From an uncultured Pseudomonadales bacterium (GTDB taxonomy: Bacteria > Pseudomonadota > Gammaproteobacteria > Pseudomonadales > JADFDG01), in the NCBI GenBank assembly GCA_964574995.1, contig CAZNPF010000004.1:34694-98693 (forward strand): a stretch of 64,000 nt of DNA, in the 5' to 3' direction. Below are positions 25,199-51,171 of this stretch, piece after piece; position 1 is the first letter of the stretch; every line of letters starts with the position of its first letter. The notes below the pieces were generated by a model that saw nothing but the letters and a program-made list of their open reading frames with translations, was not told the DNA's origin and did not search any database. The translations under genes were made by a program, and so were the position numbers.

Positions 25199-25207
25199 GG
25201 CGGTAAC

Positions 25208-26065: not shown

Positions 26066-26069
26066 TGGC

Positions 26070-29000: not shown

Positions 29001-29804
29001 GAGCGCATCGCGCATGTGGTCCATGGCTTGCAATAATTTGCCTGTCTCGTCGCGAGTCAGTATCTGAATATCGAAATCCCAATCGCCGCCCGCAATGCGT
29101 TCCGCCGTACCCATGGCATTGCTTAGGTTACGCGTCACTCCGCGAATGGTGGTGTAAGACAGCCATACGAGAAACAGAATGCCCACGGCGCCGATTGCCA
29201 AACCAAACAAGCGCATTCGATCGGTATACGTAGCGACACTGGCTAGATTGTCGGTGAACTGTTTGTTCTGCTTTGCACGTAGATCAGACTGTGCGGCAGA
29301 AAACACGTCCAGCAGAGAGTTCATGCTGGCACTTGCGCTGTACAACTGATCGGACGTGATGCTGCCATCCAACATGCCTTGCGCGAGGCCGGTCGCCGCT
29401 TTCACATAAGCATCAAACTTGTCCGCCAGGTCGGTGGCATTGCGCTGTAAATCCGGATCAATCGCGCCTAACGTGGCGATCCGTTCACGCATCTGCTTGG
29501 ATAATTCAGTAACGTCGTTCAGGACATCCTGATCTTGTTCTGTGATGGCTGCATAGAACTTTTCACGAATGCCGCTAATGGCTAGTTCGTTCTGATTCAA
29601 CACCTCGATGACGGCGTAGTTCACCTGATAGATGCGGGTGACTGAAGCCGAGGTGTGCGTGGCCGAAATAAACGAAAATCCGTAGTAGATGCCAAAGAGC
29701 ACGATGCCTGTGCCGGCAATCAACAGCACCTTGCTGCGTATGGAGAGGTGATGCAGCCATTGCCACATGAGAGAGAACTCCGGAGAAATCGGGCTGGACG
29801 GCAC
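26070..29804 (-). CDS. hybrid sensor histidine kinase: 2 TM + helical periplasmic domain, HAMP, GAF, long coiled coil, HisKA/HATPase, three receiver domains
   Basis: H-box SHELRTPLNS, G-boxes DTGIGIP and GGTGLGLTIS, and three REC domains (LIIEDDADF, LVVEDNEYA, LVVDDDMRN). A GAF-like segment precedes the coiled coil. Confidence 0.9.
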   Translation of the reverse strand: MPSSPISPEFSLMWQWLHHLSIRSKVLLIAGTGIVLFGIYYGFSFISATHTSASVTRIYQVNYAVIEVLNQNELAISGIREKFYAAITEQDQDVLNDVTELSKQMRERIATLGAIDPDLQRNATDLADKFDAYVKAATGLAQGMLDGSITSDQLYSASASMNSLLDVFSAAQSDLRAKQNKQFTDNLASVATYTDRMRLFGLAIGAVGILFLVWLSYTTIRGVTRNLSNAMGTAERIAGGDWDFDIQILTRDETGKLLQAMDHMRDALKRKRDEDRRVERSKSQLAELNDRMRGDLTTEQLSNNVLTYLVQALDAQVGAFYLYEEADRRLRLTSSYAFTRRKNVSNEYALGESLVGQSALEQKQILLTSVPDGYITVSSGLGETTPRNVVVTPIVHDQELKGLIEIASLRPFADEDLGLLASAVNAIAISLGTAQSRVKLASFVEELQGKTDELEVQKASLHKVNEDLERQAMELSSSEAKLQAQQEELRATNEELEAQAQALRASEESLQAQQEELRVTNEELEEQARLLAEQKQEMARQNEQLEQAKQILQDKNSALEESSRYKSEFLSTMSHELRTPLNSILILSNALAENKKGNLADKQVEHAKVIHSAGSDLLSLINDILDLSKVESGKMSLVIDEINLQELSQHMIRSFRHVAENRGITFDVEVQEPLPAEAIFTDRQRLEQVLRNMFSNAFKFTHKGGVTLTIRKPDPAKLAEGGLQSRIDVDRMLAFEVRDTGIGIPKDKQQVIFEAFQQADGTTSRKYGGTGLGLTISRELSHLLGGEIQLVSAENQGSTFIIYVPIGSSEQVQKDEEQGTFEAKLAALAQQYEKNEKKAESAETGEEHFSVKEKTVLIIEDDADFAGVLGQLAEDYGLESVICEDGEKGLEYARKYRPSAIILDVGLPGINGWEVMEKLKDDPRTRGIPVHFLSGDDQRGKALKMGAIDFLTKPVSKDQIVNAFHKIEGAISKNVRKLLVVEDNEYAHAGLRELFDQKGVEIRMVTTGEEAFEALRAEVFDCMILDLTLPDINGLQLLEKLHADASASAMPVIVYTGKDLTREEDQQLRKYADRVILKTDRSAERLLNEASLFLHWLESNMPAGAAGRKVEKVEHREDIFAGKKVLVVDDDMRNIYAMSASLEEMGFETTIANNGVESLEALAENPNFDLVLMDIMMPEMDGYEAMRRIRAQEHFKELPIIALTAKAMKEDRAKCIEAGANDYCSKPVDMEKLTALMRVWLHKG
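28227..28364 (-). repeat. duplicated coiled-coil module encoding LQAQQEELR(A/V)TNEELE within the kinase
   Basis: Two copies of about 50 nt each (28314..28364 and 28227..28280) encode KLQAQQEELRATNEELE and SLQAQQEELRVTNEELEE. Confidence 0.85.
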
Positions 29805-35208: not shown

Positions 35209-35782
35209 GAAAGACTTCACAGCCGACGACGAACAGACACTGACTCTGCTGCTCGACGAACTGGCGGGTGAAGACACGCTGGATTTTGCAGCGACTCACG
35301 GTTTGCTCTGCGCGATTGTCGCAGGCCCGGAGGTCAACGAGGAAGCATGGTTGGAAGCGGTGTTCGACGGTGCGCCGGACTTCGAAGACCCTGCTCAGGG
35401 GCAACGCTGTGTCGAGCTGCTGAAACTGATGTATGCCCGATTGACTCACGACTTTTACGGCAACGTGCGCCCACCGCTACCCTGCCCCTTGCGCCCCGGC
35501 CACGAGCGGCTGGAGAGCTGGTGCGTTGGCTTTATGGAAGGCGTCTTTTTGAATGAAGAAGACTGGCTGGGCGATGACACCGACCCGGAGATTGCCCATC
35601 TACTGTTGCCCATGATGGTTGAGTCCGATTTGATCGATCTGCCAGAAACCCGAGAGCTCCGCCGTGACCGCGCCCTGCGTGACACCATGGTCCGCGAGCT
35701 CCCCGAAAACTTGATCGACCTCTATCTGATCTTTCATGGCGGCAAAGAAGACGGCGCTGACGACGAGGCCGATGACGCCTGA
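35207..35782 (+). CDS. UPF0149/YecA-N-like family protein
   Basis: MKDFTADDEQTLTLLLDELAGEDTLDFAATHGLLCAIVAGPE and an acidic C-terminus. The ATG at 35207 is confirmed. Confidence 0.6.
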   Translation: MKDFTADDEQTLTLLLDELAGEDTLDFAATHGLLCAIVAGPEVNEEAWLEAVFDGAPDFEDPAQGQRCVELLKLMYARLTHDFYGNVRPPLPCPLRPGHERLESWCVGFMEGVFLNEEDWLGDDTDPEIAHLLLPMMVESDLIDLPETRELRRDRALRDTMVRELPENLIDLYLIFHGGKEDGADDEADDA

Positions 35783-35876
35783 AAATCGACCATTTGGCTG
35801 GGTAAGCGCTTCAAGTATTCGCTATAACCCTTTAATTCGCCTAGTATTTAACTGTCTATGCCATGAGCATGCCTTC

Positions 35877-36500
35877 ATGCGCCCTGCCGTTTTTGCCTTG
35901 ATTCCGCTACTTGCCAGTCTGGCCTTACCTGCCAGCGCTGAGCAGGTGCAGGTCTATCGCAAAGCCGACGGCACCCTGCTGTTTACCAACCGTGCCCCCG
36001 CCATGGTTCGAGAACCAGGTATGCGCTTGTTAGAAACTCGCGTCTTCAAGGATTCGCATTACTCGCACAAGCCGCGCGCACTCACCGCCGCTCGCCGCGA
36101 TGCCTACGACGATCTGATTGCCAGCGCATCGCGTCGCTGGAGTGTCGACTTCTCACTGATCAAAGCCGTCATGCACGCGGAATCCGCGTTCGACAAAGAT
36201 GCTGTTTCACGTGCGGGCGCTCGCGGCCTCATGCAACTGATGCCCGCCACTGCGGCCATGCTACAAGTGCACGACATCCACGATCCGTACGACAACATCA
36301 ATGCCGGTGCCAACTACCTCGGCATGCTGCTCAAAAAGTACAAAGGCAACATCAAAAACGCGCTGGCTGCATACAACGCCGGCGAAGCCAACGTGAAAAA
36401 GTACGGTGGCATTCCACCGTTCCCGGAAACGCAGGACTACGTCACCAAAGTGGTCCGGCTTTCTGAGCAATACCGGGAATTGATGGTCGCTCAACGCTGA
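35877..36500 (+). CDS. lytic transglycosylase (SLT domain), secreted
   Basis: Signal peptide MRPAVFALIPLLASLALPASA, plus HAESAFDKDAVSRAGARGLMQLMPATA and AYNAGEANV. Confidence 0.85.
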   Translation: MRPAVFALIPLLASLALPASAEQVQVYRKADGTLLFTNRAPAMVREPGMRLLETRVFKDSHYSHKPRALTAARRDAYDDLIASASRRWSVDFSLIKAVMHAESAFDKDAVSRAGARGLMQLMPATAAMLQVHDIHDPYDNINAGANYLGMLLKKYKGNIKNALAAYNAGEANVKKYGGIPPFPETQDYVTKVVRLSEQYRELMVAQR

Positions 36501-36522: not shown

Positions 36523-38670
36523 TCAGAACCCACTCTCGCGCAGCAACACGCCGCCGAGGTATGCGCCAAAACGCAGCAGCAAACTGCGGTCGTCGCCCCC
36601 CAGCCTTAATTCACCACGCATAACATGCGAAGGAATTTGCGCATCATCCGCATGAATGCGGACTCGCACGCGGTAAATGGCCTGCTCGGGCACCAGTTCA
36701 TCTTTTTGACCATGACGTACGTCGATTCCACCACCGTGCGTGGCGGCCAGATACGCATCCGGCAGAACGCGTGTATCGACACCGTCTACCGTTTCGACGA
36801 TGCCGGTGCGCACCGACGCGCCAATATCGTCCGGATAGAAACGTGCAGGATCTCCGGGTTTCACAAACCGTAAATAATCTTCCGTCACGTAAGCATCCAC
36901 GACGACACCACTGGCATGGCCGATCAGAATGCCCAAGGGTTGTGTCGCCGAAACCCAAAGCCCCGCACGCAACGACGGTGGCATATCGCTCACCACGCCA
37001 TCAAAGGGAGCTGTGATGCGTTGACGTTCACGCCGCGCTTCAAGACCTGCGAGTTGTGCCGTGGCCTGCGCCAGCGTTTGTTCCGCGACCAGACGATCTT
37101 TGGATGTGTCTTGGCTGGACATGACGCGTTCTAAATCGTGCGTGGCACTACTGACCGTGGCTCGGCCAGCAGCGATCTCTGCTTCGAGGTCCGGTGACGA
37201 CAACTCCAACAGCAAATCACCTCGGTGTACACGCATGCCGTTATGCGCAGCCACACCCAACACCTGCGAAGGCTCCGCAGCAAATAACTTTTGTTGCTCG
37301 CCAGCCTTTAGTACACCCGGAGCGAAGAATGACGACTCCCACGGCACCAGAAAAATCAACAACAGTACGCCGCCGCCGATGCCATACGCCCGTTTGCGCG
37401 ACGCACTGATTGATGTCGTCAAACTCTTCCACTGGCTAACTTCCCGCCAAATCGGCGCCGCAATAAACCACCAGATCTCAACGGCAAAAAGAAAAATGCC
37501 AAGCGCCTTGAAGAAGAAGGCGTATACCAGAAAAGCGATGCCGAGAAATAAGAAGAATCGATATATCCACGTTGCAAAGGCCCAAACGATGGCAATCCGT
37601 TCCTCGTGAGGTAACAAGTTAGGGTCATGAATTTTATCGACACCAAAAATCCAGCCGCGCAGGCGGTTCCGTGCCAATGCAAACCCACGATCTTGAAGAT
37701 TGGGAATATCAAAAATATCCGAGAAAAGGTAGTAACCGTCGAACTTCATCAACGGATTGAGATTGACCGCCAAACTCATGATCCACGTGGTAGTCGCCAG
37801 CAAAAATACAGCGCTGCGCAGCAGACCATCCGGCAGCAGCACCCATAACAACGTGGCGTAACAGGCAATGCTGAGTTCGGTGAGCATGCCGGCAGCCGCA
37901 ATGGCCACGCGTGCTCGTCGATTGGTCAGGCGCCACGCTTCGGTTGCGTCGGTGTACATCACCGGCCACATAACAATAAAGGCAACGCCGATACTCGGAA
38001 CACGCAGGCCAAAGTGTCGGCATGCTAACGCGTGCCCGCATTCATGCAGCACCTTGACCATACCCAGCGTCACTCCGAATGCCACCGCGCCCTGCCAGTT
38101 CAAAAATCCCATGAACGTCGCCAAAAACAGGTCGAGCTGACGCAGCACTAAAAACAATGAAAACAAACCGACAATGGCGGTGACCTGAAAAAATCGTCGC
38201 GACAGCAGCGTCCGCAACAGCGGATAGAAACGGTCTAAGAATGGATCTGGGCGAACCAGAGGCACTCGCAGAAACAGATAATTGTGCAATAGCGATTGCC
38301 ACCAGGCATGTTTACGCGATTGGTGTGCAGCAAGCAGGCTTTTAACGGCGTTGGGAGCCCCCTGCGTCAATTCAGCACGATGCAAAAATTCGGAAAATTC
38401 CAGCACTTCGGAGAAGCTGGTGACAATTCCCTCTTGCTCCGCAAGAGCTGCAAGGCTCTGCATGCCTGGCGCACGCGGCCAACGCGTTAATAATTCGAAT
38501 TCACGTTCGCCGATACGAAAATAACGATTGCGCACAGGGTCGTGCAACGTCCACGTCGCTTCGCCTTTCGAGTTGCGCGGGCCTGGAAATAGGCCAAGAT
38601 CATCACGCAGCATCGGCAATGGCGGATCCTTAGGTGCCTCTTCAGCCGGTGAGATCACGACTTCCGACAT
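36523..38670 (-). CDS. fusion protein: N-terminal soluble domain + polytopic M50 (site-2-protease-type) metalloprotease + C-terminal HlyD-type membrane-fusion domain
   Basis: HECGH (HExxH inside a TM helix, nt 38032..38046), several TM segments, then a lipoyl/beta-barrel MFP-like C-terminal half (RVHRGDLLLELSSPDLEAEI...ITAPFDGVVSD). Confidence 0.75.
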   Translation of the reverse strand: MSEVVISPAEEAPKDPPLPMLRDDLGLFPGPRNSKGEATWTLHDPVRNRYFRIGEREFELLTRWPRAPGMQSLAALAEQEGIVTSFSEVLEFSEFLHRAELTQGAPNAVKSLLAAHQSRKHAWWQSLLHNYLFLRVPLVRPDPFLDRFYPLLRTLLSRRFFQVTAIVGLFSLFLVLRQLDLFLATFMGFLNWQGAVAFGVTLGMVKVLHECGHALACRHFGLRVPSIGVAFIVMWPVMYTDATEAWRLTNRRARVAIAAAGMLTELSIACYATLLWVLLPDGLLRSAVFLLATTTWIMSLAVNLNPLMKFDGYYLFSDIFDIPNLQDRGFALARNRLRGWIFGVDKIHDPNLLPHEERIAIVWAFATWIYRFFLFLGIAFLVYAFFFKALGIFLFAVEIWWFIAAPIWREVSQWKSLTTSISASRKRAYGIGGGVLLLIFLVPWESSFFAPGVLKAGEQQKLFAAEPSQVLGVAAHNGMRVHRGDLLLELSSPDLEAEIAAGRATVSSATHDLERVMSSQDTSKDRLVAEQTLAQATAQLAGLEARRERQRITAPFDGVVSDMPPSLRAGLWVSATQPLGILIGHASGVVVDAYVTEDYLRFVKPGDPARFYPDDIGASVRTGIVETVDGVDTRVLPDAYLAATHGGGIDVRHGQKDELVPEQAIYRVRVRIHADDAQIPSHVMRGELRLGGDDRSLLLRFGAYLGGVLLRESGF

Positions 38671-38674
38671 GGAA

Positions 38675-40012
38675 TCACACGCCCAAGCGCTGCCGCGCCA
38701 TCGCCAACGGACGGCGTAACAGGTAATAAATCAAAGGCACGCGGCTTCCATAGACACGCGCCGTACCTTTTAAACCGAGGCGCGGGCGCTCGCCGGGACT
38801 GAATTCCGCCATCAGCGTATATGCCAGCATATTTTGCGATGTGTTTTCGGCTTCGTAGCTGGTTTGTACCAACGTCGCATCGTAAGCCGCCAGCGGATCC
38901 ACATTCAGAAAGAAGCGCACATCCGCCCCGGACTCCAGCGTAATGGCATCCTCTACCGGAAGTTTTAGTTCCAGCCAGCTGTCATCCGGCTCCGCCAACA
39001 GCATGACGCGTTGACCAACGGATACGGGCCGGCCCAATAAATCATTGCGATCCTGAAATACCGCAGTACCGTCGATGGCTGCGCGAACGACGGCGCGCTC
39101 CTGCTGTGCCAATGCTTGCTGCAATTCGGCATCTTTTTGCTCTACTTGCGCGCGTAGTGTGGGTAATCGTGCGCGGCAATCGTCACAGCTATAAGCCAAT
39201 TGCGTGTTTTTCAAATACTCCGCTTGCGAAACATCTAGCGCTTTGCGCGCAACATCAACACGGCTATCGAGATCTGTATTGTCAAATGAGAACAGCGGTG
39301 TACCGGCAGTCACTTGTTGATTGGGCGCCACCAGTACTTCACGCACGACGCCATTGATCGGGGCCGCGACCACCACCGGATTTCGTGGCGACACCGATGC
39401 AGGTACAACCACCGACTGCCGCAACGGATAAATAAGTACCAACACAATGGCGACCAAAATTCGAAGCCGTTGCCGCGTAAACCAAGCGCGCATGTTTCGA
39501 CGGCGACGATCACCGCTCAGCGCTGACCACGCATGCGCATAGGCATCGGTCAGTCGCTCCAGAAGAATCGTATGACCTTCGTCCCACGCCATGTCACCGG
39601 CCAACAACACGCCGCCCAGCAAAACCCCTCGGGGCGAAATCAGTGGCACCAACAACACATGCGGCGCTAGAAACTCGTTCCAGCCCGCCTGCAATTCAAC
39701 ATCTACTTTCGCGGCTGATAATGGGGTGATTTCACGTAATCCCGCCGCTTGGCATGCATGCAAAAATCGCTGCATCCACACCACATACGGTGAATGCGGC
39801 TCGATTTCTGATGACCCGGATGCCGCCGCGATGCGTAGCAATCCGGCATCATCCATTTCCCACATCACTGCTTGGCGATAAGGCAGCAACTTTCGTGAAT
39901 CATTGACGATCAGGAATCCCAATTCGATCAGCGATTCCGCATGACGCGCATCACGCTCAAGCTGCAACAACGCGCTGAGACCGGCAACGCGGGGATCCGC
40001 CTCTCCTGCCAT
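38675..40012 (-). CDS. GAF-like domain + TM + HlyD-type membrane-fusion protein
   Basis: About 170 aa of cytoplasmic GAF-like pattern (LVPLISPRGVLLGGVLLAG), a TM segment (LRILVAIVLVLIYPL), then MFP motifs (APINGVVREVLVAPNQQVTAGTPLFSFD). Confidence 0.7.
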   Translation of the reverse strand: MAGEADPRVAGLSALLQLERDARHAESLIELGFLIVNDSRKLLPYRQAVMWEMDDAGLLRIAAASGSSEIEPHSPYVVWMQRFLHACQAAGLREITPLSAAKVDVELQAGWNEFLAPHVLLVPLISPRGVLLGGVLLAGDMAWDEGHTILLERLTDAYAHAWSALSGDRRRRNMRAWFTRQRLRILVAIVLVLIYPLRQSVVVPASVSPRNPVVVAAPINGVVREVLVAPNQQVTAGTPLFSFDNTDLDSRVDVARKALDVSQAEYLKNTQLAYSCDDCRARLPTLRAQVEQKDAELQQALAQQERAVVRAAIDGTAVFQDRNDLLGRPVSVGQRVMLLAEPDDSWLELKLPVEDAITLESGADVRFFLNVDPLAAYDATLVQTSYEAENTSQNMLAYTLMAEFSPGERPRLGLKGTARVYGSRVPLIYYLLRRPLAMARQRLGV

Positions 40013-40013
40013 A

Positions 40014-40826
40014 TCAATGCGTCCCGAAATCTGCCGTACCGCTCATGCCCGGCAATAAGCCCGGCGCAGAGCCCAAAATTTCCGCACGGATGTCGATCGT
40101 CTGGCTGGCGGCATCCACGCGCGCGCCCAGCGAGGTCACGCGGCCTTTTACATCACTGCCGAGCTCATCGACATGGATACGAAATTCAGTGCCTTTCTTC
40201 AGCCAGCGCAGCCAACTTGAGGGCACCAGCAATTCCAGTTTCAGTACGCCGCTTTCAACGATTTGCATCAGCGGCGCACCGACCGTCATGTGTTCGTGCT
40301 GATTAGCGATGCGACGGACCACGCGCCCCGCGTAAGGCGCCATGATGTAGCACTGACTGACTTGTGATTGCGCCATGGCAACGTCTGCTTGCGCTTCACG
40401 CAGCGTTGCCCGAGCGATGTCGTAGTCGAGATCGCTGATCGCCTTGAGGTCGCGCATTTGCTTTTGCGCCACCTCTGTTTTTTCAGCTTTATCTTGCGCC
40501 GCGCGCGTCTTGTCGAGCTGCGCCTTACGTTCAGCGCAATCAAACTCGGCCAGTTTGTCGCCCCGACGGAAAGAGGCACCTTCCGTAAACAAGAAACGCT
40601 CAAGCCGCCCGCTCATCTGGCTGGCCAGCTTGGCCTCCTGCGGAGCCTCGATGACGAAACGTACCGTTGCCGGTTTTCCGGCGGGCGCAGCAGGTTTTGC
40701 AGCAGGCTTGGTGGCCGCAGTCGTCGCCGGCTTTGCCGGCGCCTCACCCGCCAACACGGGCGAGCAACAAACGATCGCGGAGATCAACAGCAGAGCGCGC
40801 CCATACTGACTTCTCATAACACGCAC
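40014..40826 (-). CDS. short HlyD/RND-adaptor-type membrane-fusion protein with a signal peptide and an Ala/Pro/Lys-rich linker
   Basis: Signal-like N-terminus LLLISAIVCCSPVLAG, linker AKPATTAATKPAAKPAAPAGKPA, and MFP motifs (IMAPYAGRVVRR). Confidence 0.7.
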   Translation of the reverse strand: MRVMRSQYGRALLLISAIVCCSPVLAGEAPAKPATTAATKPAAKPAAPAGKPATVRFVIEAPQEAKLASQMSGRLERFLFTEGASFRRGDKLAEFDCAERKAQLDKTRAAQDKAEKTEVAQKQMRDLKAISDLDYDIARATLREAQADVAMAQSQVSQCYIMAPYAGRVVRRIANQHEHMTVGAPLMQIVESGVLKLELLVPSSWLRWLKKGTEFRIHVDELGSDVKGRVTSLGARVDAASQTIDIRAEILGSAPGLLPGMSGTADFGTH

Positions 40827-42400
40827 ATCTCCTCCAACGACTTCAGTGCAGGCGCTGTGTTCTCACCTTCGGTACGCGGCCCGAGTTCATCCGCTTCTTG
40901 CTGCAATTTCGTACGCAGTCCGGTCGCTTGGTATGACCGCAATTCAACCGCAACGTCTCCCGGCGATTTACGCGGCAGATCTTGCGGATACGGATCCACG
41001 CCCAGCGTGCTCAGCAACATGGCATGGCTCGCCTCCAGATCGGCAAACGAGAATGCGCCCTCCAAGCCCGCAAGCACTGCTTCTACTTCGGTACGAATCT
41101 GCGTCAGTTCATCACCACTGGCACTGGCGGCGCGCGCATTGGCTCGGGACTCTCGCTCATCGGCCACGCGGCCCAGCTCACGCGATAAACACCAACCGCG
41201 ACGATCCGTTTCAACCGCACGCAGAGCAATATTCAATTGCGATACGACGGCGACCGTCATCGCATCTGCACGCAAACTTTCGGCGGCTTCTGCCGCTTTA
41301 CCATAACGGCGTGCAGATGGCAGTGCCGCCAAATTGAGCAAGTTAAACGAGAACTGAGCACTGCCCTCGTTCCAATCGTTGTGCTCTAGAAATTTGTTAC
41401 TGTCATAACGCGGACCTGCCGACAACTGCAGCGACGGCAGCAGGCTGGCCACGGCAATGCGGCCTTCCAGACGCGCCATACGTTGACGGTAACCCTGCTC
41501 GCGCAACTCGGGACGATTGGCCAAGGCGATACGCAATAACTGCTCGTGGCTAAGATTGGGCAACCACTGCGGCTCAGAGAGTTCTTCGGGCTCTTTCAAC
41601 ACCAGTGCCGTGCCCGCCGGCAAAGACACCAGACGCGCCAGATCGTTGCTGGCATTCAAAACTTCTTCCTGCAACTGCACTAGGCGCTTCAAAGAAAGCA
41701 ACAGGTCTCGACGATATTCCAGTGGCGGCGTCTGCCCCTGCAATCGCAATTCTTCCAGCTTCCGCGAGCGCACCAACGCAGATTCAACGCGCTCCCGCAG
41801 AGCCTGCAAACGGGGTTGCATCCGCTGTGCTGCCAAGGCGCGCCACCAGGCAAGCGTGACTTCTTGATTGATCGCCTGAAAAGCTTTCCTGCGTTGCTCA
41901 CTCGCAGCCAGCAGCGCATTACCTTTTTGTTTGGCGCGCAAATAACCCAAACCAAAATCCAGCGCATTCCAACTCAGTTGCAACTGAGCCGTGCTCGATT
42001 GCTTTTCCGAAGAAATGGAAGGTTCCAGTGTTTGCTGACCCGTCGTGGGGTTATAGCTCACCGATGATGCGTATTCGTCACGCGTGGTGTAGCCAGCACC
42101 CAGTGCCAATTGCGGCCACAAGGCATAACTACTGCGGCTGACATCCTCTCGCGCCATCGCCTCGTTCATAAACGCGGCGCGATAATCGAGGTTGTACATC
42201 AGAGCGCGAGCCACGGCATCTGCCAAATCCATTGGCTCGGATACGGCGGATTGTTCGTTGCGAATTCGCTGCAGTCGTTCCTCACTCGCGGCAAGACTGT
42301 CGTCACGATCCAGCGTCGAAACGCGAACCGTACATGCAGACAACAGCAAGAAGGAACCAACAAGCAAAAGCCAGATCGGCTGGCGGATGACGGGCTTCAA
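40814..42400 (-). CDS. TolC/OMF-family outer-membrane channel lipoprotein
   Basis: Lipobox LLLSAC and duplicated OEP-type helical repeats. The start codon at 42400 is TTG in the DNA. Confidence 0.8.
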   Translation of the reverse strand: MKPVIRQPIWLLLVGSFLLLSACTVRVSTLDRDDSLAASEERLQRIRNEQSAVSEPMDLADAVARALMYNLDYRAAFMNEAMAREDVSRSSYALWPQLALGAGYTTRDEYASSVSYNPTTGQQTLEPSISSEKQSSTAQLQLSWNALDFGLGYLRAKQKGNALLAASEQRRKAFQAINQEVTLAWWRALAAQRMQPRLQALRERVESALVRSRKLEELRLQGQTPPLEYRRDLLLSLKRLVQLQEEVLNASNDLARLVSLPAGTALVLKEPEELSEPQWLPNLSHEQLLRIALANRPELREQGYRQRMARLEGRIAVASLLPSLQLSAGPRYDSNKFLEHNDWNEGSAQFSFNLLNLAALPSARRYGKAAEAAESLRADAMTVAVVSQLNIALRAVETDRRGWCLSRELGRVADERESRANARAASASGDELTQIRTEVEAVLAGLEGAFSFADLEASHAMLLSTLGVDPYPQDLPRKSPGDVAVELRSYQATGLRTKLQQEADELGPRTEGENTAPALKSLEEMCVL

Positions 42401-42607: not shown

Positions 42608-45600
42608 TCACGCTACGTTCTGGAAGTGACGCAGCAAGGCGTCCATATCGGCACGACGATCCAAGACCTCGCGAGTGAGCGTCGCCGACAGACCCAACTT
42701 ACCGACAGGCACTGTTGCATCAGCCGCCGCAGACGCCGCTTGGTCAGCTGCCGCAGGCTCAGCCGCTGCGGCATGCTCAGCTTCAGCCATCTCGACCATG
42801 CCATCCAATGCCAACTGCGCAACTTTGTCGGCTTGCGCGCCGGTATTCGCCAGCGCCGGCATTTCTACAGACGGTAAGGCCAGTGCTTCACCATTGATGA
42901 AACTGCTTTCCACCAAAGCGAATCGCTCTTCTTCGTCATCCAGCACCGGCACTGTGAACTGGCCGTTGACATAGACGCGCAACGTAGCACTACCCACCGA
43001 ACCATCTGCGTACTGAACGCTGTAGAAGAACGTGTCGACATACACCGAACCCAGCGGCAAGCGTGTCAGTGCGGCACCTGGCGTGTACACCACAGATCCG
43101 TTTGCATCGAGCGATAGACTGCCGCCATTGCCAACCCCACTAACACCGGTCACGGCCGTAACGCCTACGTCGTTGCCAGTCAGTGCAATCGTTGTTGGCG
43201 ACATGCCACGCACCACGGCGACATCATCCACGGCGATGTTGCTGGGCACGCCGCCCGGATAATTGACATACACGGTCGCGATCGACGTGTTGCCGAGACT
43301 GTCGATCACCTCATACGAGAAACGATCCAGCGATGCATCTGATGTTGCGGTGTAACTGATCGTGCCATCGGGATTGAGCGCAGCCGTGCCGTGCGTTCCC
43401 GTCGTCACCAAACGCAGCACGCGCAGCGTGCCACCTTCAGGATCAACGTCATTGGCGAGCACATTGACGTTGGCCGTGGCATTAGCCGCCACACTGACGC
43501 CATCGGCAAACGCAACCGGCGCATCATCCACACCGACGACCGTGACAGTCAGCATTGCGGTAGATACGTTGCCCGTTTTGTCGCGCACCGTGTACACCAG
43601 CGTGTCTGTCGCGGTTTCGCCTGCGCGCAGATAATCAAACGCACTGCCGGGCACGTAACTGATCGTGCCATCGGCATTGATCATCGCACTGCCGCGCGCG
43701 GCTGAATCGTCAATGCTCACCACCGTGAACGTGTCTGCGCCATCACGATCCACATCGTTGGCGCGTACATCAACCACGGCAACCGCATTGGATTTCACCG
43801 CGACAGCATCATCCACTGCGATGACGGGATCATCGGTTCCCGTGATGACCAGCGTGACCATGCCACTGCTGGTTTGGCCATTGCTGCTGGTCAGCGTGTA
43901 GTGGAACGTTTCGGAAACGCTTTCACCGGCGACCAAGTAATCAAACTTGCCGCGCGGATCGTAGACCAACGTTGAGCCGTTGTTATACAGACGTCCCTGT
44001 ACACCATCCGTTGCCAGCGACTGAATCGACAACGTGTTGACCGTATTCGGATTGGTGTCGTTGGCCAGCACATCCAAACGAGTCGGTGCCGTAGACGATA
44101 CCGAGAAGACATCGTTGCCCGCTTCGGCCAAGCGATCCATGCCGTGCACCGTCACCGTCACCGTCGTCGAGTAGGTGATGCCGCCCTGCTCAGTCAGATA
44201 CGTGAAGGAATCGGTAGCCGTCTGCCCTGCGCCCAACGTTTTGAATGCGGCGCCTGGCGTGTAAACCATGCGGCCATCCGTTGCAAAAGAAATGCTGCCT
44301 TGTGTGCCGGTGGTATCGAGTGCCACGACATCCATTTCATCCGCAGGCAAGAAGAACGATTCTGCCGATGTGGTTTCCGCCGACAGCACGGTGCTGTAGT
44401 TGCCTTGCGTCAGCAAGTTGGCCCAGTAGACGGCGCCGTCATTGAGCTGACCACCCGTATCACGCCAACGCGCACCAATGATGGCGCGTGTATCCGCAAC
44501 TGCCACGGAGCTACCGAAGAATTCTGACGTACCTACAGAGCCACCTTGCGGTGCATTGCTATAGAACTTTTCTGGCAACCAACTGCCCGCCACATGCTTG
44601 TACGCATACGCCGCGCCGGAGTAGAGACCGTTGGTATCTTCAAATTGCGCACCCACCAACAAGCGCGTACCGCCCGTGCCCTCATCGTAATCAACGGCAA
44701 CATCACTGCCGTAATAATCACTGGCCGTCGTATCGAATGATGTCAGTTTGGATTCTAATCGCCAGGTGCCATTGCCGAGGCCACCGTTATTTTCAGCACC
44801 ACTTTGCTGGCTGACGGAACGCCAGATATATACCGCGCCACCATCTGTCGCGGCACCATCGTTAAACACCGACGACGCCACGATGATGCCACCCTGACGG
44901 GCCGTGCCCCCGATCGTGTAAATATCGAGATCCAGTGCCCAGCCCAGCATGTCACCGGATTTTCCATCTGGCGCATACAACTTGGCCACTTGCTTGAGGC
45001 CTTGGTCGGTCGAGAAAACGTAGATGCTGCCCGTGTCACCGTAGTTGGAATCCGGTGCATCTTCGCCGCTGTAGATGTTGCGGATTTCAGACTGACTCAA
45101 CGCGCGGTTGTAAACGCGGAAATCATCGATGTAATCCGCAAAGCGTTGCGTACCACTTTGATAATTACCCACTGCAATGATGTCGTCAGTGGCCAAGAAG
45201 TTGGACACACCCACTTTCACGCCATCGATGTAGTAGAACGTGCGCGCATTGACACCCGTGCCATCGGCTACGGCCGTCACCATGTGCCAGCCCGTTTTTT
45301 GTGCGGCCGTCAGTGCGTAATTGCTGTTGGCTGCAGCGATGCGCGTGGCGGTCATCGCACGGCCAGTCGCGCTGAGATTGTTATAACCATACGCATTATT
45401 GAACTGCACGACATAGGTGTCAGCGCCACTGGCACCATCGACGTTGGTCGTCACCGTGACAGCACCCGCACCCATCAGCGTATTCAGCGCATTCTGAATA
45501 TTGGTGGCTTGCGTTGCACCGGTATCACTGTAGGTAATACTGGCCGTCGTACCGACGCCTGGCACCGAGAGTGTGAAGTTAGTGTTGCCAGTAAATGCCA

Positions 45601-48600
45601 ACAATTGCGCTTCACGCGAAGCCGACACACCAGCACGGCTGGACGCCATCACGTCAAAATTGATGGCGGAATTATTAAAGGTAATCCGCAGCACATCACT
45701 ACGCGCCGCCTCCGTGACTACCGTGACCGTTGCCGTACCCAGGCCTTGCGTTGCCAGTAATGTGTTCAGCGCTGCTTGGACGCTGGCCGCCACCGTGGTG
45801 CCGGTTACGTTGTGAGTAATTGCAGCAGTCGTACCCAGACCCGGAATCGTCAACGTAAATGTAGTGACTGTTGCGCTATCGATGACCAGCAATTGCTGCT
45901 CGTAGACGTTGGCGGGGTTGAAGCCCGGCACACCCAGCGCCGTGTTGTTCCAAGCGCCCAGATCGTCAGTACCGGCATTGACGATGATCTGATGGTTGTC
46001 ACCACTGCCAAAGCTGCCACGCGTCAGCGTGTTGTACGCGGCATCTGTTAGCAAATCTTTATACCAAGACGAAATTGTCCACGTCTGTCCTAGATCGATG
46101 GCGCTATCCATCGTGAGCACGCCATTGGTTCCCGCCATGTACAGCACATTGCCGCGCTGACCGTCGTAGAAGAACTGTGCATCGGTCGACAGGGTACCGC
46201 CCACACTTCCAAATTGAGCAGGCGCGTAAGAACCCGTGCCGTCGAATTCGATGCGCGACACCATGCCTTGTGAGTTGTCGTCACGCGCAGAAGCAACAGC
46301 CAAGATGTTTTCGTCAAACGATACGCTGCTGCCGAACAGATCAAAATCCGCCGGATCTTTAGGAATGACGTTGGCCGTCAACGATCCATTGGCCCCTGGG
46401 AACGCCGCGAAAAATGCCGCGCCAGAATCCGTGAAACTGCCGTAATCAAAATGACTCGCACCGACCAAGATAACAGTGCCAGCCTCGTTGATGGCAACCG
46501 ATGAACCGAAGTGATCATCCGGATTGTTCGCATTAGCGGTCAACTTGTAGAACGTCGCGAATGAACTCCCGCTCCGGTCGTAGCAGTACACGGCACCGCG
46601 CCCGCCATTCTCGCTGCGCGCACCCACAATCAGTTTGTCGCCGTCGTTGCTCCAGTCGAGGCTGTAGCCAAATTGAGCGCCGTTACCCGCAGGTGCCGTC
46701 GGTGCAAGCCCCGTGATGTAGGTCCAACCTGAACCGTTCCATTGATAGATCCAAGCTGCGCCAGGAGACGAACTATCACCGGGCGCACCCACTGCAAGCC
46801 AGTTGCCGTCTTCAGAAATGGCTGAAGCAAAACCAAAGTTGGCATTGTTGATGGGGCCATCCAGAACGGGGGCCAGCGTTTTTTCTGATGGGTTGACGAT
46901 GGTCAGTAAAAAGTCATCGAAAACCGTGGCCGGACCACCACGCGATGCAGCGGCATTGTCATTGGCGGTTACGCGAACGGAAATCGCGCCCACATCACCG
47001 GCCGCCGGCGTGCCGGAGAACGTGCGCGAAACAGAATCAAAACTCAACCACGCAGGCAAGGCGCCACCACCGCTCAACGTCGCGGTGTACGTCACGTTGT
47101 CGAACGGTGCCGGGTCGGGATCCGCAAAGGCTGTCGATGGCACCGTGAAGCCATACTGATAACCGGCAAGCGCCACTTGATCGGACAGCGGTGCAGCTAC
47201 GAAAGGTGCGTTATTGGCACTATCCACGCGAATCACAAACGTGCGTGTACCACTCACTGCGCTGTAGGGATCGGTCACTCGTACCGTGACGCTGTAATCA
47301 CCTGCAGCCGTGCCTGCTGGAATCGTGACCCGCAGCAAGGTGCCATCCGCCACGGCACTCCAGCCGCCCGGCAAAGCCGTTGCGCTCGGAATCAAGCCGT
47401 TGATGTCTGCCGAGTCGGTATCCGTGAAATACGCGCTGAAATCGTATGCGTTGGTCGAGCCGGATTGCTGATACGCATAGGGAGACAGCGGAACCAGTGC
47501 TGTCGTAAAGGGCGCATCGTTGGCGCCGTTGATCGTCACCGTCAGCAGTTGGTTGGTTGAACCGCCCTGCCCGTCGCTGACAGTCACGCTGAATGTATCG
47601 GTGGTTGATTGGCCGACTGCAAGCGATTGCAGATATGAAGATGTGGTCGGGTTATAGGTGATATTTCCTGAACCCAGCGTAATCGTGGCGCCCACGCTGC
47701 TGGTACCCACCGCCGTCACCGACAGCACATCACCAAATATCCCATATTGAGTGATGTTGTAATCCGAATCGTTGGCCAAGATGCTGGCACCGGTAATAAC
47801 GACAGACGTGTCTTCGTTCGTTACACCGAGCACATCGTCTGCGGCATTAGGATCCCAATTGAAGTGATACGACGCGGCTCTGGTGCCGTTGGCCGTCAAT
47901 GCATCCAATGACCAGTTGTAACCATTCTGCAATGTGCTGGCCGTAATGAGGTTATTCGATGCTTTGATTTGTGGCTGGTTGGTATTCGCGTTGAATACCA
48001 CGAGGAACGTATCGACTGCGCCATCTACCGAGCACGTTACCGTGACCGCGCCGGCACCCACCACCGCATTGATTGCCGCCTGAATATTGGCGGCCATCGT
48101 CGCTCCCGTCGCGCTGTATGTAATGTCAGCGGTATCTGGGAAGCCCGGAATGCTTATCGTAAATGTGGTGTCAGGAGAAATATCGGGAATGATCAGTTGT
48201 TGCTGCTCATAGGCACCGGCCGGGCCATTACGCCACAGCGCAACGGCGACTTCCTGCACCGTATTAATCAACTGACCACTGCCCCATGTGCCATCGGGCT
48301 GCATTTCAGCCACGTAGGTGTACGGGTTGCCGCTGATCGTTCCGCTATACAACAGGAAAGCGCTATTGGTGTTATCGCCGTTAGCCGTTTGATCCAAGTC
48401 ATTGACCATGACCACCGCGCCACCGGCACCGAATAATCCACCCAGCGCGCTCCAACTCGTGCTACCGGCATCCAGTTTGTACGTTTGAATACCACCGCTG
48501 TTGGCGACCACCATGTAGTCGTCATCCATCGAGATATCGTTATTGCCGGCGCTGTCCCACGAGAACTGATTGGTGTAAGTCGCATAATTGACAATGCCGA

Positions 48601-50158
48601 CGCCGGGCGCATCGTAGGTGCGCAGTTCCGTACCCGCCGGCCGGCCATCACCGCCTACGGCATACCACCAGTTGGCATTGTCTTGATCGTAACCAACCGC
48701 CACGACACCACCGAAGCGGTAGGCGTCTTCCCCGCCTGTCGGTGTTTGGTTTTCAATTTGGATGATGTTGGTCCAACCCGTGGTGTCCACACCGAAATTA
48801 CCGTGCGCGGTCGCCGACAACACGAACGCAACGCCGACGTCATCACGTTCGTAGCGAGTGACTGAACTGCCACCCCAGGCGCCATCTTTGTCATCGTTGT
48901 CGTACTGCCACCAGTCTTCGTAGGGGTTACCCATAATCAGGCGGTAGTTGCCGGCACCGTCATGAGCGATGTCTACGCTGTAGCCAAACTGATCCGCCGT
49001 CGCGCGATAGTCGTTGACATCAGTGCTGCCACCATTGAATCCCGTGCGGCCGGAGTAACGGGCATTGAACTGCGCAATGGTTTGCGGCGCAGTCGTCCAG
49101 TTGGTGCCGTTCCACGTATACACGTACACCCGGCCATCACTGCCGCCGGCGTTATTGTAAGTAGGCGCACCCACCACCAGTTTGTTGCCGGCGGCGGCGA
49201 TGTCAAAACCAAAGCCACCACTGCCATCACCGGTGACGGTCGCATTTAACGCCCAAACGCCAGTGGTGGCGTTACGCTGATAAATATCCACTTTGTTGGA
49301 CCCGGAAGTTCCAACAAATTTCCAGTCTTTGTTGTCGGTGGTACGGGTAATGGCAACAGCCGATGTGCCCGCAGAAATTTCCGTATCTTGCACCCATCCA
49401 TCGGCGAGCAAGCCAAGGAAATCATTGCCAGCGCCCCCCGCAAACAGCGACCGATTCGATACATCACCGATGCTGCGTTCCAGATCCCAGTCGCCGCCCA
49501 AACTGGCCACGCCCGTCAGATCCGACGATGCCGCCACATCCGCACCAGTTTTTTCGGCGAGCGCCTCGATGAATTGCTGCCCGCTTTCTCCGGCAGCCAC
49601 ATCACAACCGTAGATCAGCAAATCGCCTTCCGGCGACAAGGCTTGCCGCATCGCGGCCCACGCACGCTCATTTTTATCCAAGCTGGTGATGCTGACGGAT
49701 TCGCCACCTAACGATAAATGCCCGGCACCGCCGTGACTCACTAAGTGAATGGCATCAACGTCACCTTCGCGACGGCCCAATACAGATTGGATCTGCGACG
49801 CCCAGTCGCTGCCTTGAAGGACGTGGACTTCTACGCTTGGCCCGATATTGCGGATCAACGATTCAAAATCGCTCACACCCGCATCGACAAAAAGAATTTC
49901 TCGGCTACCACCCGCAGCTGACAGAGGGCTGACAACAACATCGCCCAAAAAGGCTGCAGCAAGCGCATGCCCATCCTGCGCATTTACCACTGCATCAGCG
50001 GATGCCGTGGCCAGAACTTTCTCGGCCGTCTCAACGGCGGCTGCATCGAGCAATACGCGCTGCTCCAGAGCAAGGAAGCGGCTCAATGCTTGCTTGGAAG
50101 ACACCGCAGATTGGCCAATAGGTTGCTGACCACCCTTACGGGAATTGTCCTTGCTCAT
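42608..50158 (-). CDS. 2516-aa adhesin-like giant protein: DUF4347-like N-terminal domain, FG-GAP-like beta-propeller repeats, cadherin/VCBS-like and He_PIG-like Ig domains, LamG-like domain
   Basis: N-terminal LEQRVLLDAAAV followed by ILFVDAGV...HLVSHGGAGHLSLGG...IYGCDVAAG...GDWDLE (nt 49481..49903). FG-GAP-like FGYS/FGSS...VGA repeats. ANDxD...TDTF..Y.V.D...V.V.G.DDAP modules. LamG-like ...DDFRVYNRALSQSEIRNIY. Confidence 0.85.
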   Translation of the reverse strand: MSKDNSRKGGQQPIGQSAVSSKQALSRFLALEQRVLLDAAAVETAEKVLATASADAVVNAQDGHALAAAFLGDVVVSPLSAAGGSREILFVDAGVSDFESLIRNIGPSVEVHVLQGSDWASQIQSVLGRREGDVDAIHLVSHGGAGHLSLGGESVSITSLDKNERAWAAMRQALSPEGDLLIYGCDVAAGESGQQFIEALAEKTGADVAASSDLTGVASLGGDWDLERSIGDVSNRSLFAGGAGNDFLGLLADGWVQDTEISAGTSAVAITRTTDNKDWKFVGTSGSNKVDIYQRNATTGVWALNATVTGDGSGGFGFDIAAAGNKLVVGAPTYNNAGGSDGRVYVYTWNGTNWTTAPQTIAQFNARYSGRTGFNGGSTDVNDYRATADQFGYSVDIAHDGAGNYRLIMGNPYEDWWQYDNDDKDGAWGGSSVTRYERDDVGVAFVLSATAHGNFGVDTTGWTNIIQIENQTPTGGEDAYRFGGVVAVGYDQDNANWWYAVGGDGRPAGTELRTYDAPGVGIVNYATYTNQFSWDSAGNNDISMDDDYMVVANSGGIQTYKLDAGSTSWSALGGLFGAGGAVVMVNDLDQTANGDNTNSAFLLYSGTISGNPYTYVAEMQPDGTWGSGQLINTVQEVAVALWRNGPAGAYEQQQLIIPDISPDTTFTISIPGFPDTADITYSATGATMAANIQAAINAVVGAGAVTVTCSVDGAVDTFLVVFNANTNQPQIKASNNLITASTLQNGYNWSLDALTANGTRAASYHFNWDPNAADDVLGVTNEDTSVVITGASILANDSDYNITQYGIFGDVLSVTAVGTSSVGATITLGSGNITYNPTTSSYLQSLAVGQSTTDTFSVTVSDGQGGSTNQLLTVTINGANDAPFTTALVPLSPYAYQQSGSTNAYDFSAYFTDTDSADINGLIPSATALPGGWSAVADGTLLRVTIPAGTAAGDYSVTVRVTDPYSAVSGTRTFVIRVDSANNAPFVAAPLSDQVALAGYQYGFTVPSTAFADPDPAPFDNVTYTATLSGGGALPAWLSFDSVSRTFSGTPAAGDVGAISVRVTANDNAAASRGGPATVFDDFLLTIVNPSEKTLAPVLDGPINNANFGFASAISEDGNWLAVGAPGDSSSPGAAWIYQWNGSGWTYITGLAPTAPAGNGAQFGYSLDWSNDGDKLIVGARSENGGRGAVYCYDRSGSSFATFYKLTANANNPDDHFGSSVAINEAGTVILVGASHFDYGSFTDSGAAFFAAFPGANGSLTANVIPKDPADFDLFGSSVSFDENILAVASARDDNSQGMVSRIEFDGTGSYAPAQFGSVGGTLSTDAQFFYDGQRGNVLYMAGTNGVLTMDSAIDLGQTWTISSWYKDLLTDAAYNTLTRGSFGSGDNHQIIVNAGTDDLGAWNNTALGVPGFNPANVYEQQLLVIDSATVTTFTLTIPGLGTTAAITHNVTGTTVAASVQAALNTLLATQGLGTATVTVVTEAARSDVLRITFNNSAINFDVMASSRAGVSASREAQLLAFTGNTNFTLSVPGVGTTASITYSDTGATQATNIQNALNTLMGAGAVTVTTNVDGASGADTYVVQFNNAYGYNNLSATGRAMTATRIAAANSNYALTAAQKTGWHMVTAVADGTGVNARTFYYIDGVKVGVSNFLATDDIIAVGNYQSGTQRFADYIDDFRVYNRALSQSEIRNIYSGEDAPDSNYGDTGSIYVFSTDQGLKQVAKLYAPDGKSGDMLGWALDLDIYTIGGTARQGGIIVASSVFNDGAATDGGAVYIWRSVSQQSGAENNGGLGNGTWRLESKLTSFDTTASDYYGSDVAVDYDEGTGGTRLLVGAQFEDTNGLYSGAAYAYKHVAGSWLPEKFYSNAPQGGSVGTSEFFGSSVAVADTRAIIGARWRDTGGQLNDGAVYWANLLTQGNYSTVLSAETTSAESFFLPADEMDVVALDTTGTQGSISFATDGRMVYTPGAAFKTLGAGQTATDSFTYLTEQGGITYSTTVTVTVHGMDRLAEAGNDVFSVSSTAPTRLDVLANDTNPNTVNTLSIQSLATDGVQGRLYNNGSTLVYDPRGKFDYLVAGESVSETFHYTLTSSNGQTSSGMVTLVITGTDDPVIAVDDAVAVKSNAVAVVDVRANDVDRDGADTFTVVSIDDSAARGSAMINADGTISYVPGSAFDYLRAGETATDTLVYTVRDKTGNVSTAMLTVTVVGVDDAPVAFADGVSVAANATANVNVLANDVDPEGGTLRVLRLVTTGTHGTAALNPDGTISYTATSDASLDRFSYEVIDSLGNTSIATVYVNYPGGVPSNIAVDDVAVVRGMSPTTIALTGNDVGVTAVTGVSGVGNGGSLSLDANGSVVYTPGAALTRLPLGSVYVDTFFYSVQYADGSVGSATLRVYVNGQFTVPVLDDEEERFALVESSFINGEALALPSVEMPALANTGAQADKVAQLALDGMVEMAEAEHAAAAEPAAADQAASAAADATVPVGKLGLSATLTREVLDRRADMDALLRHFQNVA
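45362..45613 (-). repeat. copy 3 of the ~85-aa module (EAQLLAFTGNTNFTLSVPGVGTTASITYSDTGATQATNIQNALNTLMGAGAVTVT...)
   Basis: Lies directly after copy 2 and has the same motif order. Confidence 0.8.
45638..45904 (-). repeat. copy 2 of the ~85-aa module (YEQQLLVIDS...TFTLTIPGLGTTAAITHNVTGTTVAASVQAALNTLLATQGLGTATVTVV...)
   Basis: Same motif order as copy 1. Confidence 0.8.
47951..48211 (-). repeat. copy 1 of an ~85-aa intragenic module (YEQQQLIIPD...TFTISIPGFPDTADITYSATGATMAANIQAAINAVVGAGAVTVT...)
   Basis: Aligned by eye with the two copies below. Coordinates were derived from the DNA and are in frame with the start at 50158. Confidence 0.8.
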
Positions 50159-50364: not shown

Positions 50365-51171
50365 ATGACTATGCCCCGCCGAAGCTTGGCGAGCGCTGTT
50401 CTCGGCATGATTGACCAGCACGGCTCACCAGAAGAGCGGCGGCTCGCCTCTACCAATCAGGACGCCCTGAAAGCTTTTCTCGATCATCCTGACTGTCAAC
50501 CGCGGCCGGGCAGCAACACGCTCGACATTGGGCTGGAAAATCGGCTAACCCTAAAATTCAACCTCATTGCCAATAAACGGCGTTCCCCCTGGGGAATGAT
50601 CGAGCAGATCGGAAATTACTCCCCAGCACTAAGGGCGACTGCCGACGAAGTCATACGTCACCGGATACGCTGCCATGCAGGCATCAAAATTACCCCAGCC
50701 AGTGCCGAGTTCGAGCTATACCCCTACGAAACCCATGAAGGCCCCCTCGCCAGCCAGCTAGGTATCCAAGCGGATTTCACCCAAACCGGCTTACCAGCGA
50801 CGCCGTACTGTTATGGCCTGTCATCCGACGACACTTTGAGTGCTTACGCTCAACTGGAGTCGGTCTCCGCCTCAGAACTTGAGCAGGCCGTTGGCTTTCC
50901 ATTGCCTGCTGCAAACCTTAAAACGCTCGCACTCTTTCACAGCAAACGCAGTCCAGATGGGCGCTGGACTCCCAGCAAAGCCGGAATCGAGTTCCTCCCT
51001 TTTCCATCTCACCTGTTAAACAACGTCCTAACGCACTTCCAGTTGAATTTTGCCTATCTAATTCACCGAGGCGGCTTTAGGCCGTACGGCGTCATTGGAT
51101 CGCAAGGGTCACGACAAGTGCTTTACACAACACTTCTACCCACTATCCGCCCCACTCGGTCCGACTTATGA
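50365..51171 (+). CDS. hypothetical protein (268 aa), no recognisable motif
   Basis: Long ORF whose stop overlaps the next start (ATGA at 51168). Confidence 0.6.
   Translation: MTMPRRSLASAVLGMIDQHGSPEERRLASTNQDALKAFLDHPDCQPRPGSNTLDIGLENRLTLKFNLIANKRRSPWGMIEQIGNYSPALRATADEVIRHRIRCHAGIKITPASAEFELYPYETHEGPLASQLGIQADFTQTGLPATPYCYGLSSDDTLSAYAQLESVSASELEQAVGFPLPAANLKTLALFHSKRSPDGRWTPSKAGIEFLPFPSHLLNNVLTHFQLNFAYLIHRGGFRPYGVIGSQGSRQVLYTTLLPTIRPTRSDL

Follow-up and report, generated by a model that had tools for sequence, protein, structure and literature searches.

A cluster of minus-strand genes in a 64-kb stretch of DNA from an uncultured Pseudomonadales bacterium (contig CAZNPF010000004.1; the whole stretch of 64,000 nt is called the window below) encodes an outer-membrane factor (OMF), three membrane-fusion proteins (MFPs, periplasmic adaptors), one of which is fused to an M50-type intramembrane metalloprotease, and an adhesin-like protein of giant size. 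We read this cluster as a five-gene operon-like module consisting of the giant cargo, OMF, MFP1, GAF-MFP2, and M50-MFP, and its composition suggests an undescribed route for the export and trimming of giant surface proteins. In our main reading, to which we assign a probability of roughly 0.5, the module is a dedicated type 1-like apparatus that spans the envelope, exports the adjacent LEPR-XLL giant, and removes or processes the leader-like segment at its N-terminus. This reading builds on the gene content, the domains, the intact protease motifs, the synteny with the giant, the motifs of the cargo, and the absence of a linked pump. The five genes of the module are the following.

42608..50158, minus strand: giant adhesin-like protein of 2516 aa, proposed as the cargo.
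40814..42400, minus strand: OMF, 528 aa, a lipoprotein of the TolC/OprM type that starts with TTG and has the lipobox LLSAC.
40014..40826, minus strand: MFP1, 270 aa, a short periplasmic adaptor with a signal peptide followed by an Ala/Pro/Lys linker.
38675..40012, minus strand: MFP2, 445 aa, with a cytoplasmic GAF-like domain, a transmembrane (TM) segment, a periplasmic adaptor, and a C-terminal helix.
36523..38670, minus strand: M50-MFP fusion, 715 aa, with an N-domain, a site-2 protease (S2P) core, and a periplasmic adaptor.

The four cassette genes are arranged head to tail in the order OMF, MFP1, MFP2, M50-MFP, all on the minus strand. A check of the open reading frames (ORFs) returned the same four genes and coordinates as an earlier interpretation made from the letters alone (the sequence-only reading), and also the same junctions, with an overlap of 13 nt between OMF and MFP1 followed by gaps of 1 nt and 4 nt. 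An alternative start of MFP1 (ATG at 40817) would result in a protein of 267 aa and a 4-nt ATGA overlap with the OMF stop. The giant gene is located upstream of OMF on the same strand at a distance of 207 nt. The sequence-only reading had drawn the boundary of the cassette at four genes and was thereby one gene short, as the upstream giant LEPR-XLL/DUF4347 protein is part of the conserved module. A scan for promoters and terminators gave counts no better than those in shuffled sequence. Long ORFs on the opposite strand within the cassette (e.g., 40368..41306) were taken as GC-rich artefacts; similar ones clustered only among Azospirillum loci.

Relatives of the 715-aa protein are numerous. More than 2200 were found in a word-indexed search, mostly with a length of 700–740 aa, and an exhaustive search of 50%-identity representatives yielded 3548 clusters at E ≤ 1e-30. 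When one genome per species was scanned, at least 544 genomes contained a relative. The best 80 loci, which came from alpha-, beta-, gamma-, and deltaproteobacteria, were kept, and their ORFs (4664 in total) were called and searched with the proteins of the window. All four cassette genes were present in 65 of these loci, while 9 of the remaining 15 loci were interrupted by contig ends. Since the same compact gene order recurred in 61 of the 80 loci, we concluded that the four-gene cluster is more than a chance arrangement. A giant ORF was found directly before OMF and on the same strand in nearly all loci whose upstream DNA was long enough, and just downstream in loci of differing gene order. 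The neighbouring giants ranged from about 1000 to more than 2000 aa, most of them running off the 10-kb flank. When all neighbouring ORFs were clustered against each other, only the giant, the OMF, and the MFPs turned out to be conserved.

Carriers of the module include Azospirillum, Pseudomonas syringae, P. cichorii, Methylobacter, and many uncultured lineages, and annotated examples are present in Pseudomonas sp. ABC1 and Novispirillum. Plasmid p2 of Azospirillum brasilense Sp7 encodes a 4195-aa DUF4347 protein, a TolC family protein, a resistance-nodulation-division (RND) adaptor, an HlyD protein, and a second HlyD protein. In P. syringae, three adaptor genes without OMF were found, with a DUF4347 giant 3 kb downstream.

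From its conserved position, the giant LEPR-XLL/DUF4347 protein would be the obvious cargo of the apparatus. Three of its regions are relevant here.

50024..50080, minus strand: LEPR-XLL motif, residues 27–45, RFLALEQRVLLDAAAVETA.
49412..49897, minus strand: DUF4347, residues 88–249 (Pfam PF14252, E 1e-46).
42623..42703, minus strand: C-terminal motif, GKLGLSATLTREVLDRRADMDALLRHF, ending 4 residues before the C-terminus.

Searches of Pfam and NCBIfam assigned DUF4347, cadherin-like, VCBS, FG-GAP, Big_9, and tandem-95 domains to the giant. No RTX repeats were found in the domain search and no Sec-type hydrophobic N-terminal segment in the hydropathy scan. The N-terminal motif of the window giant reads LEQRVLL and is clearer in its relatives (e.g., LEPRMMFDAA), where LEPRxxFDAA was present at the N-terminus of 10 of 12 full-length neighbouring giants. 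In A. brasilense Sp7, the motif (MALEPRFMFDAAG) starts at residue 3, and the P. syringae giant has the LEPR motif MIMSLEPRMLFDGA. When LEPRxxFDAA was used as a regular expression, 19 of the 4664 locus ORFs matched, all of them giants and all near the start. The motif precedes Ala-rich sequence. We rejected the LEPR region as a Sec or Tat signal, because a hydrophobic stretch is missing and, in A. brasilense, where the motif begins at residue 3, there is no charged n-region.

The C-terminal motif comprises about 27 aa with the pattern G[LF]SxQL, about 13 residues, and LLxxL, and is located 1–27 residues from the C-terminus in many giants. A hidden Markov model (HMM) built from 20 seeds matched 33–37 ORFs, about half of which were seed sequences or close relatives. 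Each match was at the C-terminus of a giant adjoining a cassette, and none was found elsewhere among the 4664 ORFs. Within the window, the giant was the only ORF to match this HMM with an E value below 1, and also the only ORF to carry both the LEPR and the C-terminal motif. The ends of the giant are thus conserved while its internal domains vary, a pattern as for a cargo signal, and the C-terminal motif is a candidate for a secretion or docking signal. Some loci contained two LEPR giants beside one cassette: in L071 (320..6051) they were arranged in tandem, and in L019 (12385..22086) one was complete and the other truncated. This suggests that one apparatus can serve several cargo proteins.

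DUF4347 was present in many giants and not in all of them; it was absent from that of Pseudomonas cichorii (locus L020). The DUF4347 copies share (I/V)SHG..G.L.LG and LL(Y/F)GC(D/N)(V/L)A, motifs reminiscent of the His/Cys dyad in caspase/CHAT-type peptidases, and the Novispirillum copy has Ser in place of the motif His. It is possible that DUF4347 is an autoprocessing or plug domain just behind the leader.

The protease would act as the processing component of the module. The parts of M50-MFP are as follows.

38296..38613, minus strand: N-domain, residues ~20–125, cytoplasmic.
38032..38046, minus strand: HECGH, residues 209–213.
37735..37764, minus strand: NLNPLMKFDG, residues 303–312, the second S2P motif.
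Residues 423–441, minus strand: last TM segment.
36526..37332, minus strand: periplasmic adaptor domain, residues 447–715.

The sequence-only reading had recognised HECGH as an M50 signature, and this assignment was strengthened by our results. Peptidase_M50 (PF02163) matched with 31.7 bits (gathering cut-off 27.2) in a partial alignment covering profile positions 2–119 of 221. Residues H209, E210, and H213 were invariant in 75 homologues, as were N303, P306, D311, and G312 of the second motif; the NxxPxxxxDG motif supplies the third zinc ligand in M50 proteases. The AlphaFold model of M50-MFP (predicted local distance difference test, pLDDT, 88.8) starts with an N-domain of three strands and three helices (residues 26–98). 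This is followed by a polytopic core, in which HECGH lies in helix 192–219, then a beta-hairpin and NxxPxxxxDG at residues 303–312. The C-terminal part comprises the TM helix 423–441, a periplasmic adaptor of lipoyl, hairpin, and barrel domains, and a conserved C-terminal helix. Profile searches of the PDB matched MjS2P (3b4r) and RseP (7w6x) on the HExxH helix. Four invariant charged residues beyond the zinc ligands (K206, E265, K388, and E398) were located in predicted membrane helices; we can only speculate that they might take part in proton coupling or the handling of the substrate.

An S2P-type core with intact motifs, together with cytoplasmic domains on two of the proteins, would also suit trans-envelope signalling, which the sequence-only reading had put forward beside processing-coupled export. 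Here, RseP-style regulated intramembrane proteolysis would free a cytoplasmic regulator upon outer-membrane events. We disfavour this explanation and regard it as the least probable of all, because genes for sigma factors, anti-sigma factors, or DNA-binding proteins are not conserved beside the cassette. A Pfam search furthermore revealed no PDZ domain in M50-MFP, and the conserved partner is a giant protein of extracellular type. Processing-coupled export, the other of the two proposals, is favoured because a leader-like motif at the N-terminus and a conserved motif at the C-terminus are present in the cargo, and because the M50 core with its N-domain resembles leader peptidases of peptides that are ribosomally synthesised and then modified post-translationally (RiPPs).

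This resemblance was apparent from the best match of M50-MFP to a curated family, the daptide leader peptidase NF041824 (daptide_HExxH; E 3e-47, residues 37–400). The YydH/LiaK family NF058609 also matched. As the alignment to the daptide profile spans residues 37–400, M50-MFP has its N-domain in common with RiPP M50 proteases, and we suspect that it resembles the RiPP recognition element (RRE). The databases name the relatives of M50-MFP only "HlyD family efflux transporter periplasmic adaptor subunit" or "putative peptide zinc metalloprotease". The annotation as efflux adaptor subunits and the closeness to RiPP leader peptidases would both fit the efflux of a peptide or small molecule (RiPP-like or other), in which the M50 protease matures a small unannotated peptide and the giant is a mere frequent neighbour. 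We consider this highly improbable. No conserved small ORF or modification enzyme accompanied the cassette, and the family-specific motifs at both ends of the giant persist while its internal domains vary, as would be expected of a cargo signal. Because of the conserved giant partner, peptide efflux and signalling are both poor fits.

The remaining cassette proteins had the features expected for a conduit. The sequence-only reading had described an OMF lipoprotein and a 270-aa MFP with an Ala/Pro/Lys linker, and both descriptions held: OMF matched Pfam OEP in two stretches with 101.8 bits (cut-off 22), in addition to its LLSAC lipobox, and MFP1 matched TIGR01730 with 130.6 bits (cut-off 94.9). 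MFP1, MFP2 (51.9 bits to Pfam HlyD_3), and the C-terminus of the 715-aa protein all matched HlyD_3 and HlyD_D23. Two further parts were delimited in MFP2.

39503..40012, minus strand: GAF-like domain, residues 1–170, cytoplasmic.
39404..39466, minus strand: TM segment, residues 183–203, from the hydropathy scan.

The AlphaFold model of MFP2 (pLDDT 90) shows an N-domain with secondary structure elements in GAF order, one TM helix, and the adaptor. The GAF profile PF01590 matched 10 of 21 members of the MFP2 family (best E 2e-5) and GAF_2 matched 5. The GAF-like domain proposed in the sequence-only reading was thus supported at the level of the family; the window copy itself had no Pfam GAF match. 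A PDB profile search with the GAF-like domain alone gave chance-level matches only and no GAF, and hhalign against the window's own GAF domain as a single template gave a probability of 1.4%. Foldseek placed MacA, MexA, and ZneB at the top of the matches for MFP2, with EmrA also present, and the periplasmic parts of MFP2 and M50-MFP grouped with MacA, EmrA, MexA, AcrA, and ZneB. With the whole models, the matches listed comprised adaptor proteins only and identified neither the cytoplasmic N-domains nor the M50 core. Both membrane-anchored adaptors end in conserved helices that are absent from classical adaptors, YYLLRRPLAxLRQxLG in MFP2 (38675..38740) and VLIRESGF in M50-MFP (36526..36580). 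These helices may re-enter the membrane or bring the adaptors into contact with each other.

As the sequence-only reading had stated for the cluster, no pump or ATPase is encoded, and this applied to the whole window. Neither a phmmer search with an ATP-binding cassette (ABC) query nor a search for the ABC signature motif found anything in the 64 kb, nor was there an ORF of RND size. The sole gene of the major facilitator superfamily (MFS) in the window is located at 7633..8847, 28 kb from the cassette. That reading had also considered an ABC or RND gene that adjoins all homologous cassettes and has simply been displaced here. Among the 80 loci, the cassettes were not consistently located beside an ABC or RND gene, so the module as such lacks a pump, and clustering of the neighbours revealed no conserved ABC, RND, or MFS gene. 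We rejected a displaced ABC partner because the ABC matches obtained by phmmer in related loci were sporadic, not conserved, and belonged to other clusters.

We infer from this architecture how export and cleavage might proceed, and what topology and stoichiometry the apparatus might have. The cargo would be synthesised in the cytoplasm without a Sec signal, and its C-terminal motif and/or LEPRxxFDAA would dock on the cytoplasmic domains of the two membrane-anchored adaptors, i.e., the GAF-like domain in MFP2 and, in the M50 fusion, the winged-helix-like N-domain. The three paralogous adaptors would form a periplasmic sleeve that engages the OMF trimer, through which the polypeptide exits. MFP2 would be the HlyD-like partner, its cytoplasmic domain serving for docking or sensing, and MFP1 an extra periplasmic adaptor, while M50-MFP would occupy the usual place of the ABC transporter and act as leader peptidase. 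With an active site near the cytoplasmic face, the intramembrane metalloprotease would cut the N-terminal leader, in parallel to the C39 peptidase domain of peptidase-containing ABC exporters. The driving force might come from the proton-motive force, from an extracellular ratchet based on Ca-dependent folding of the cadherin/VCBS repeats, or from an unlinked ATPase. A precedent is the M50 protease EpeP of Bacillus subtilis, which according to a review (PMC10885120) is proposed to export its peptide as well as to cleave it.

Several observations weigh against export and processing by the module as proposed. The LEPR-XLL model NF012209 was passed by the window giant by just 0.1 bit (17.1 versus a cut-off of 17). 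Only about half of the loci yielded a detectable C-terminal motif, and the canonical loci in which it went undetected numbered about 25, among them a Rhizobiaceae-like subgroup. The scores of M50-MFP were below the cut-offs of the RiPP proteases, with 161.6 versus 300 for NF041824 and 31.5 versus 225 for NF058609, and by these scores it is a relative of the RiPP leader M50 families and not a member of them. Regarding the suspected RRE-like nature of the N-domain, a search of PDB sequences with the N-domain profile alone gave no match, the PqqD profile matched 1 of 23 family members (E 0.15), and hhalign of the N-domain against a single PqqD sequence gave a probability of 1.7%. An unlinked ABC partner is conceivable, as our search covered the loci and the window. 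To our knowledge, there is no TolC-dependent protein export without an inner-membrane energiser, and we know of no M50 protease that acts as a translocase.

That the module encodes no energiser would also be expected if a canonical type 1 ABC system, unlinked to the module, exported the giant and the cassette served retention and release in the style of the Lap system. The cassette would then hold the N-terminus of the giant at the envelope, M50 cleavage at the LEPR/DAAA region would regulate release, and the GAF-like domain of MFP2 would sense a second messenger, resulting in inside-out signalling. Like type 1 substrates, the cargo carries a conserved motif at the C-terminus, and it resembles type 1 adhesins. 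The Ala-rich sequence behind the N-terminal motif and the cytoplasmic GAF-like domain would fit as well. Furthermore, genes for cyclic diguanosine monophosphate (c-di-GMP) signalling are present in the window, and directly upstream of the P. syringae cassette (L084 7036..9153) we found a gene for a response regulator (RR) of the RR-PAS-GGDEF-EAL type, whose product has 34% identity to that of 20774..22909 in the window. This could hint at control of the adhesin system by c-di-GMP. However, RR-PAS-GGDEF-EAL is a common architecture, and the other loci did not keep such a gene beside the cassette. Genes for known type 1 adhesins usually have linked ABC and MFP genes of their own, and here the cassette was the only set of linked envelope genes, in about 60 loci. 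An OMF with three adaptors would make a full conduit, beyond the needs of a tether. In addition, from what is established for S2Ps, the M50 active site is expected near the cytoplasmic face, whereas LapG acts in the periplasm. On balance, we regard Lap-style retention and release as the main rival explanation, yet as unlikely.

Export and processing of the giant by the module itself can also be put in a stronger form, which we offer tentatively and with doubt. The module would then represent an unrecognised secretion pathway of Gram-negative bacteria that is TolC-dependent, ABC-independent, and powered without a linked ATPase. The M50-adaptor fusion and the GAF adaptor would recognise giants by the RiPP-like LEPR leader and the C-terminal motif, translocate them, and cleave the leader. 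In agreement with the sequence-only reading, which knew of no experimental description of such a cassette, we found none in the full-text literature, a body of text in which most subscription journals are not covered. Mentions of M50 in reviews of tripartite pumps were false matches (a DOI string and the residue M507).

Giant adhesins shape biofilms, host colonisation, and surface attachment, and all TolC-type routes for them known to us need an ABC ATPase. If the module exports its neighbour, it would be a new inner-membrane solution for type 1-like secretion. It would also provide a function for the unexplained LEPR-XLL motif and for thousands of proteins annotated as "HlyD family efflux adaptor", and would link RiPP-style leader peptidases to protein secretion. 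The module occurs in tractable hosts, which makes the question open to direct testing.

The remainder of the window contains several other envelope and signalling genes. A gene for an SLT-domain lytic transglycosylase (35736..36500, plus strand) converges on the end of the cassette. Lytic transglycosylases often help envelope-spanning machines through the peptidoglycan; we rejected the SLT gene as a member of the module, because it was not kept beside the cassette in related loci. Divergent from the giant gene are two plus-strand ORFs of 268 and 303 aa (50365..52079) with no match in Pfam or NCBIfam. The plus-strand region 58055..60725 contains two adjacent ORFs (644 and 266 aa) that weakly match DUF6160 and, behind them, an ORF of 486 aa for which no family match was found. 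The region is rich in envelope machinery and includes a type II secretion cluster (11021..20682, minus strand) that is unrelated to the cassette, with the following genes assigned by Pfam.

13351..14607, minus strand: GspL.
14604..15713, minus strand: GspK.
17929..19143, minus strand: GspF.
19150..20682, minus strand: GspE ATPase.

It is followed by a cluster for c-di-GMP and chemosensory-like signalling (20774..29804, minus strand).

20774..22909, minus strand: RR-PAS-GGDEF-EAL.
22922..24145, minus strand: RR-PAS-PilZ.
25208..26065, minus strand: CheR-like.
26070..29804, minus strand: hybrid histidine kinase with HAMP and GAF.

We compared the module to several known systems. M50-MFP shares the HExxH helix, the beta-hairpin, and the NxxPxxxxDG motif with the site-2 proteases RseP, MjS2P, and SpoIVFB. 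Unlike these, it lacks a PDZ or CBS domain and an anti-sigma partner, and it is extended by the N-domain and the adaptor fusion. The RiPP leader M50 proteases (NF041824; YydH/EpeP/LiaK NF058609; TglG/TmoG) likewise combine a soluble N-domain with an M50 core. In contrast to them, the protease of the module is fused to a periplasmic adaptor and occurs in Gram-negative bacteria together with an OMF, its candidate substrate is a giant, and no modification enzymes are present.

In the LapA/LapG/LapD system, the N-terminus of a giant adhesin is a proteolytic target, as it would be in the module, and the inner-membrane partner also has a cytoplasmic sensor domain. The protease of the module is intramembrane, in contrast to LapG, and neither a LapG-type cysteine protease nor a LapD-type GGDEF-EAL receptor was found among the Pfam-scanned neighbours or conserved in related loci. 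More than one paralogous adaptor per assembly is also known from TriABC-OpmH of Pseudomonas aeruginosa, which uses two, and the TriA-TriB fusion 6vej was among the PDB sequence matches. TriABC has an RND pump, while the module has three adaptors and no pump.

The type 1 systems (HlyBD-TolC, LapBCE-LapA, and SiiCDF-SiiE) resemble the module in the OMF, in a membrane-anchored adaptor with a cytoplasmic N-domain, and in an adjacent cargo gene, the product of which is giant, repeat-rich, and without a Sec signal and has a conserved element at the extreme C-terminus. The ABC transporter by which these systems are defined was found neither in the module nor in the window. Instead of one adaptor the module has three different ones, one of them fused to an M50 protease, and its cargo has a conserved N-terminal LEPR motif and no RTX repeats. 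The peptidase-containing ABC exporters for double-glycine peptides (C39; CvaB and PCAT1 type) differ from the module in having a cysteine protease instead of an M50 metalloprotease, an ATP-binding cassette, and a peptide as cargo instead of a protein of thousands of residues. The logic of both would nevertheless be the same, as a leader peptidase is built into the inner-membrane component of a TolC/MFP route.

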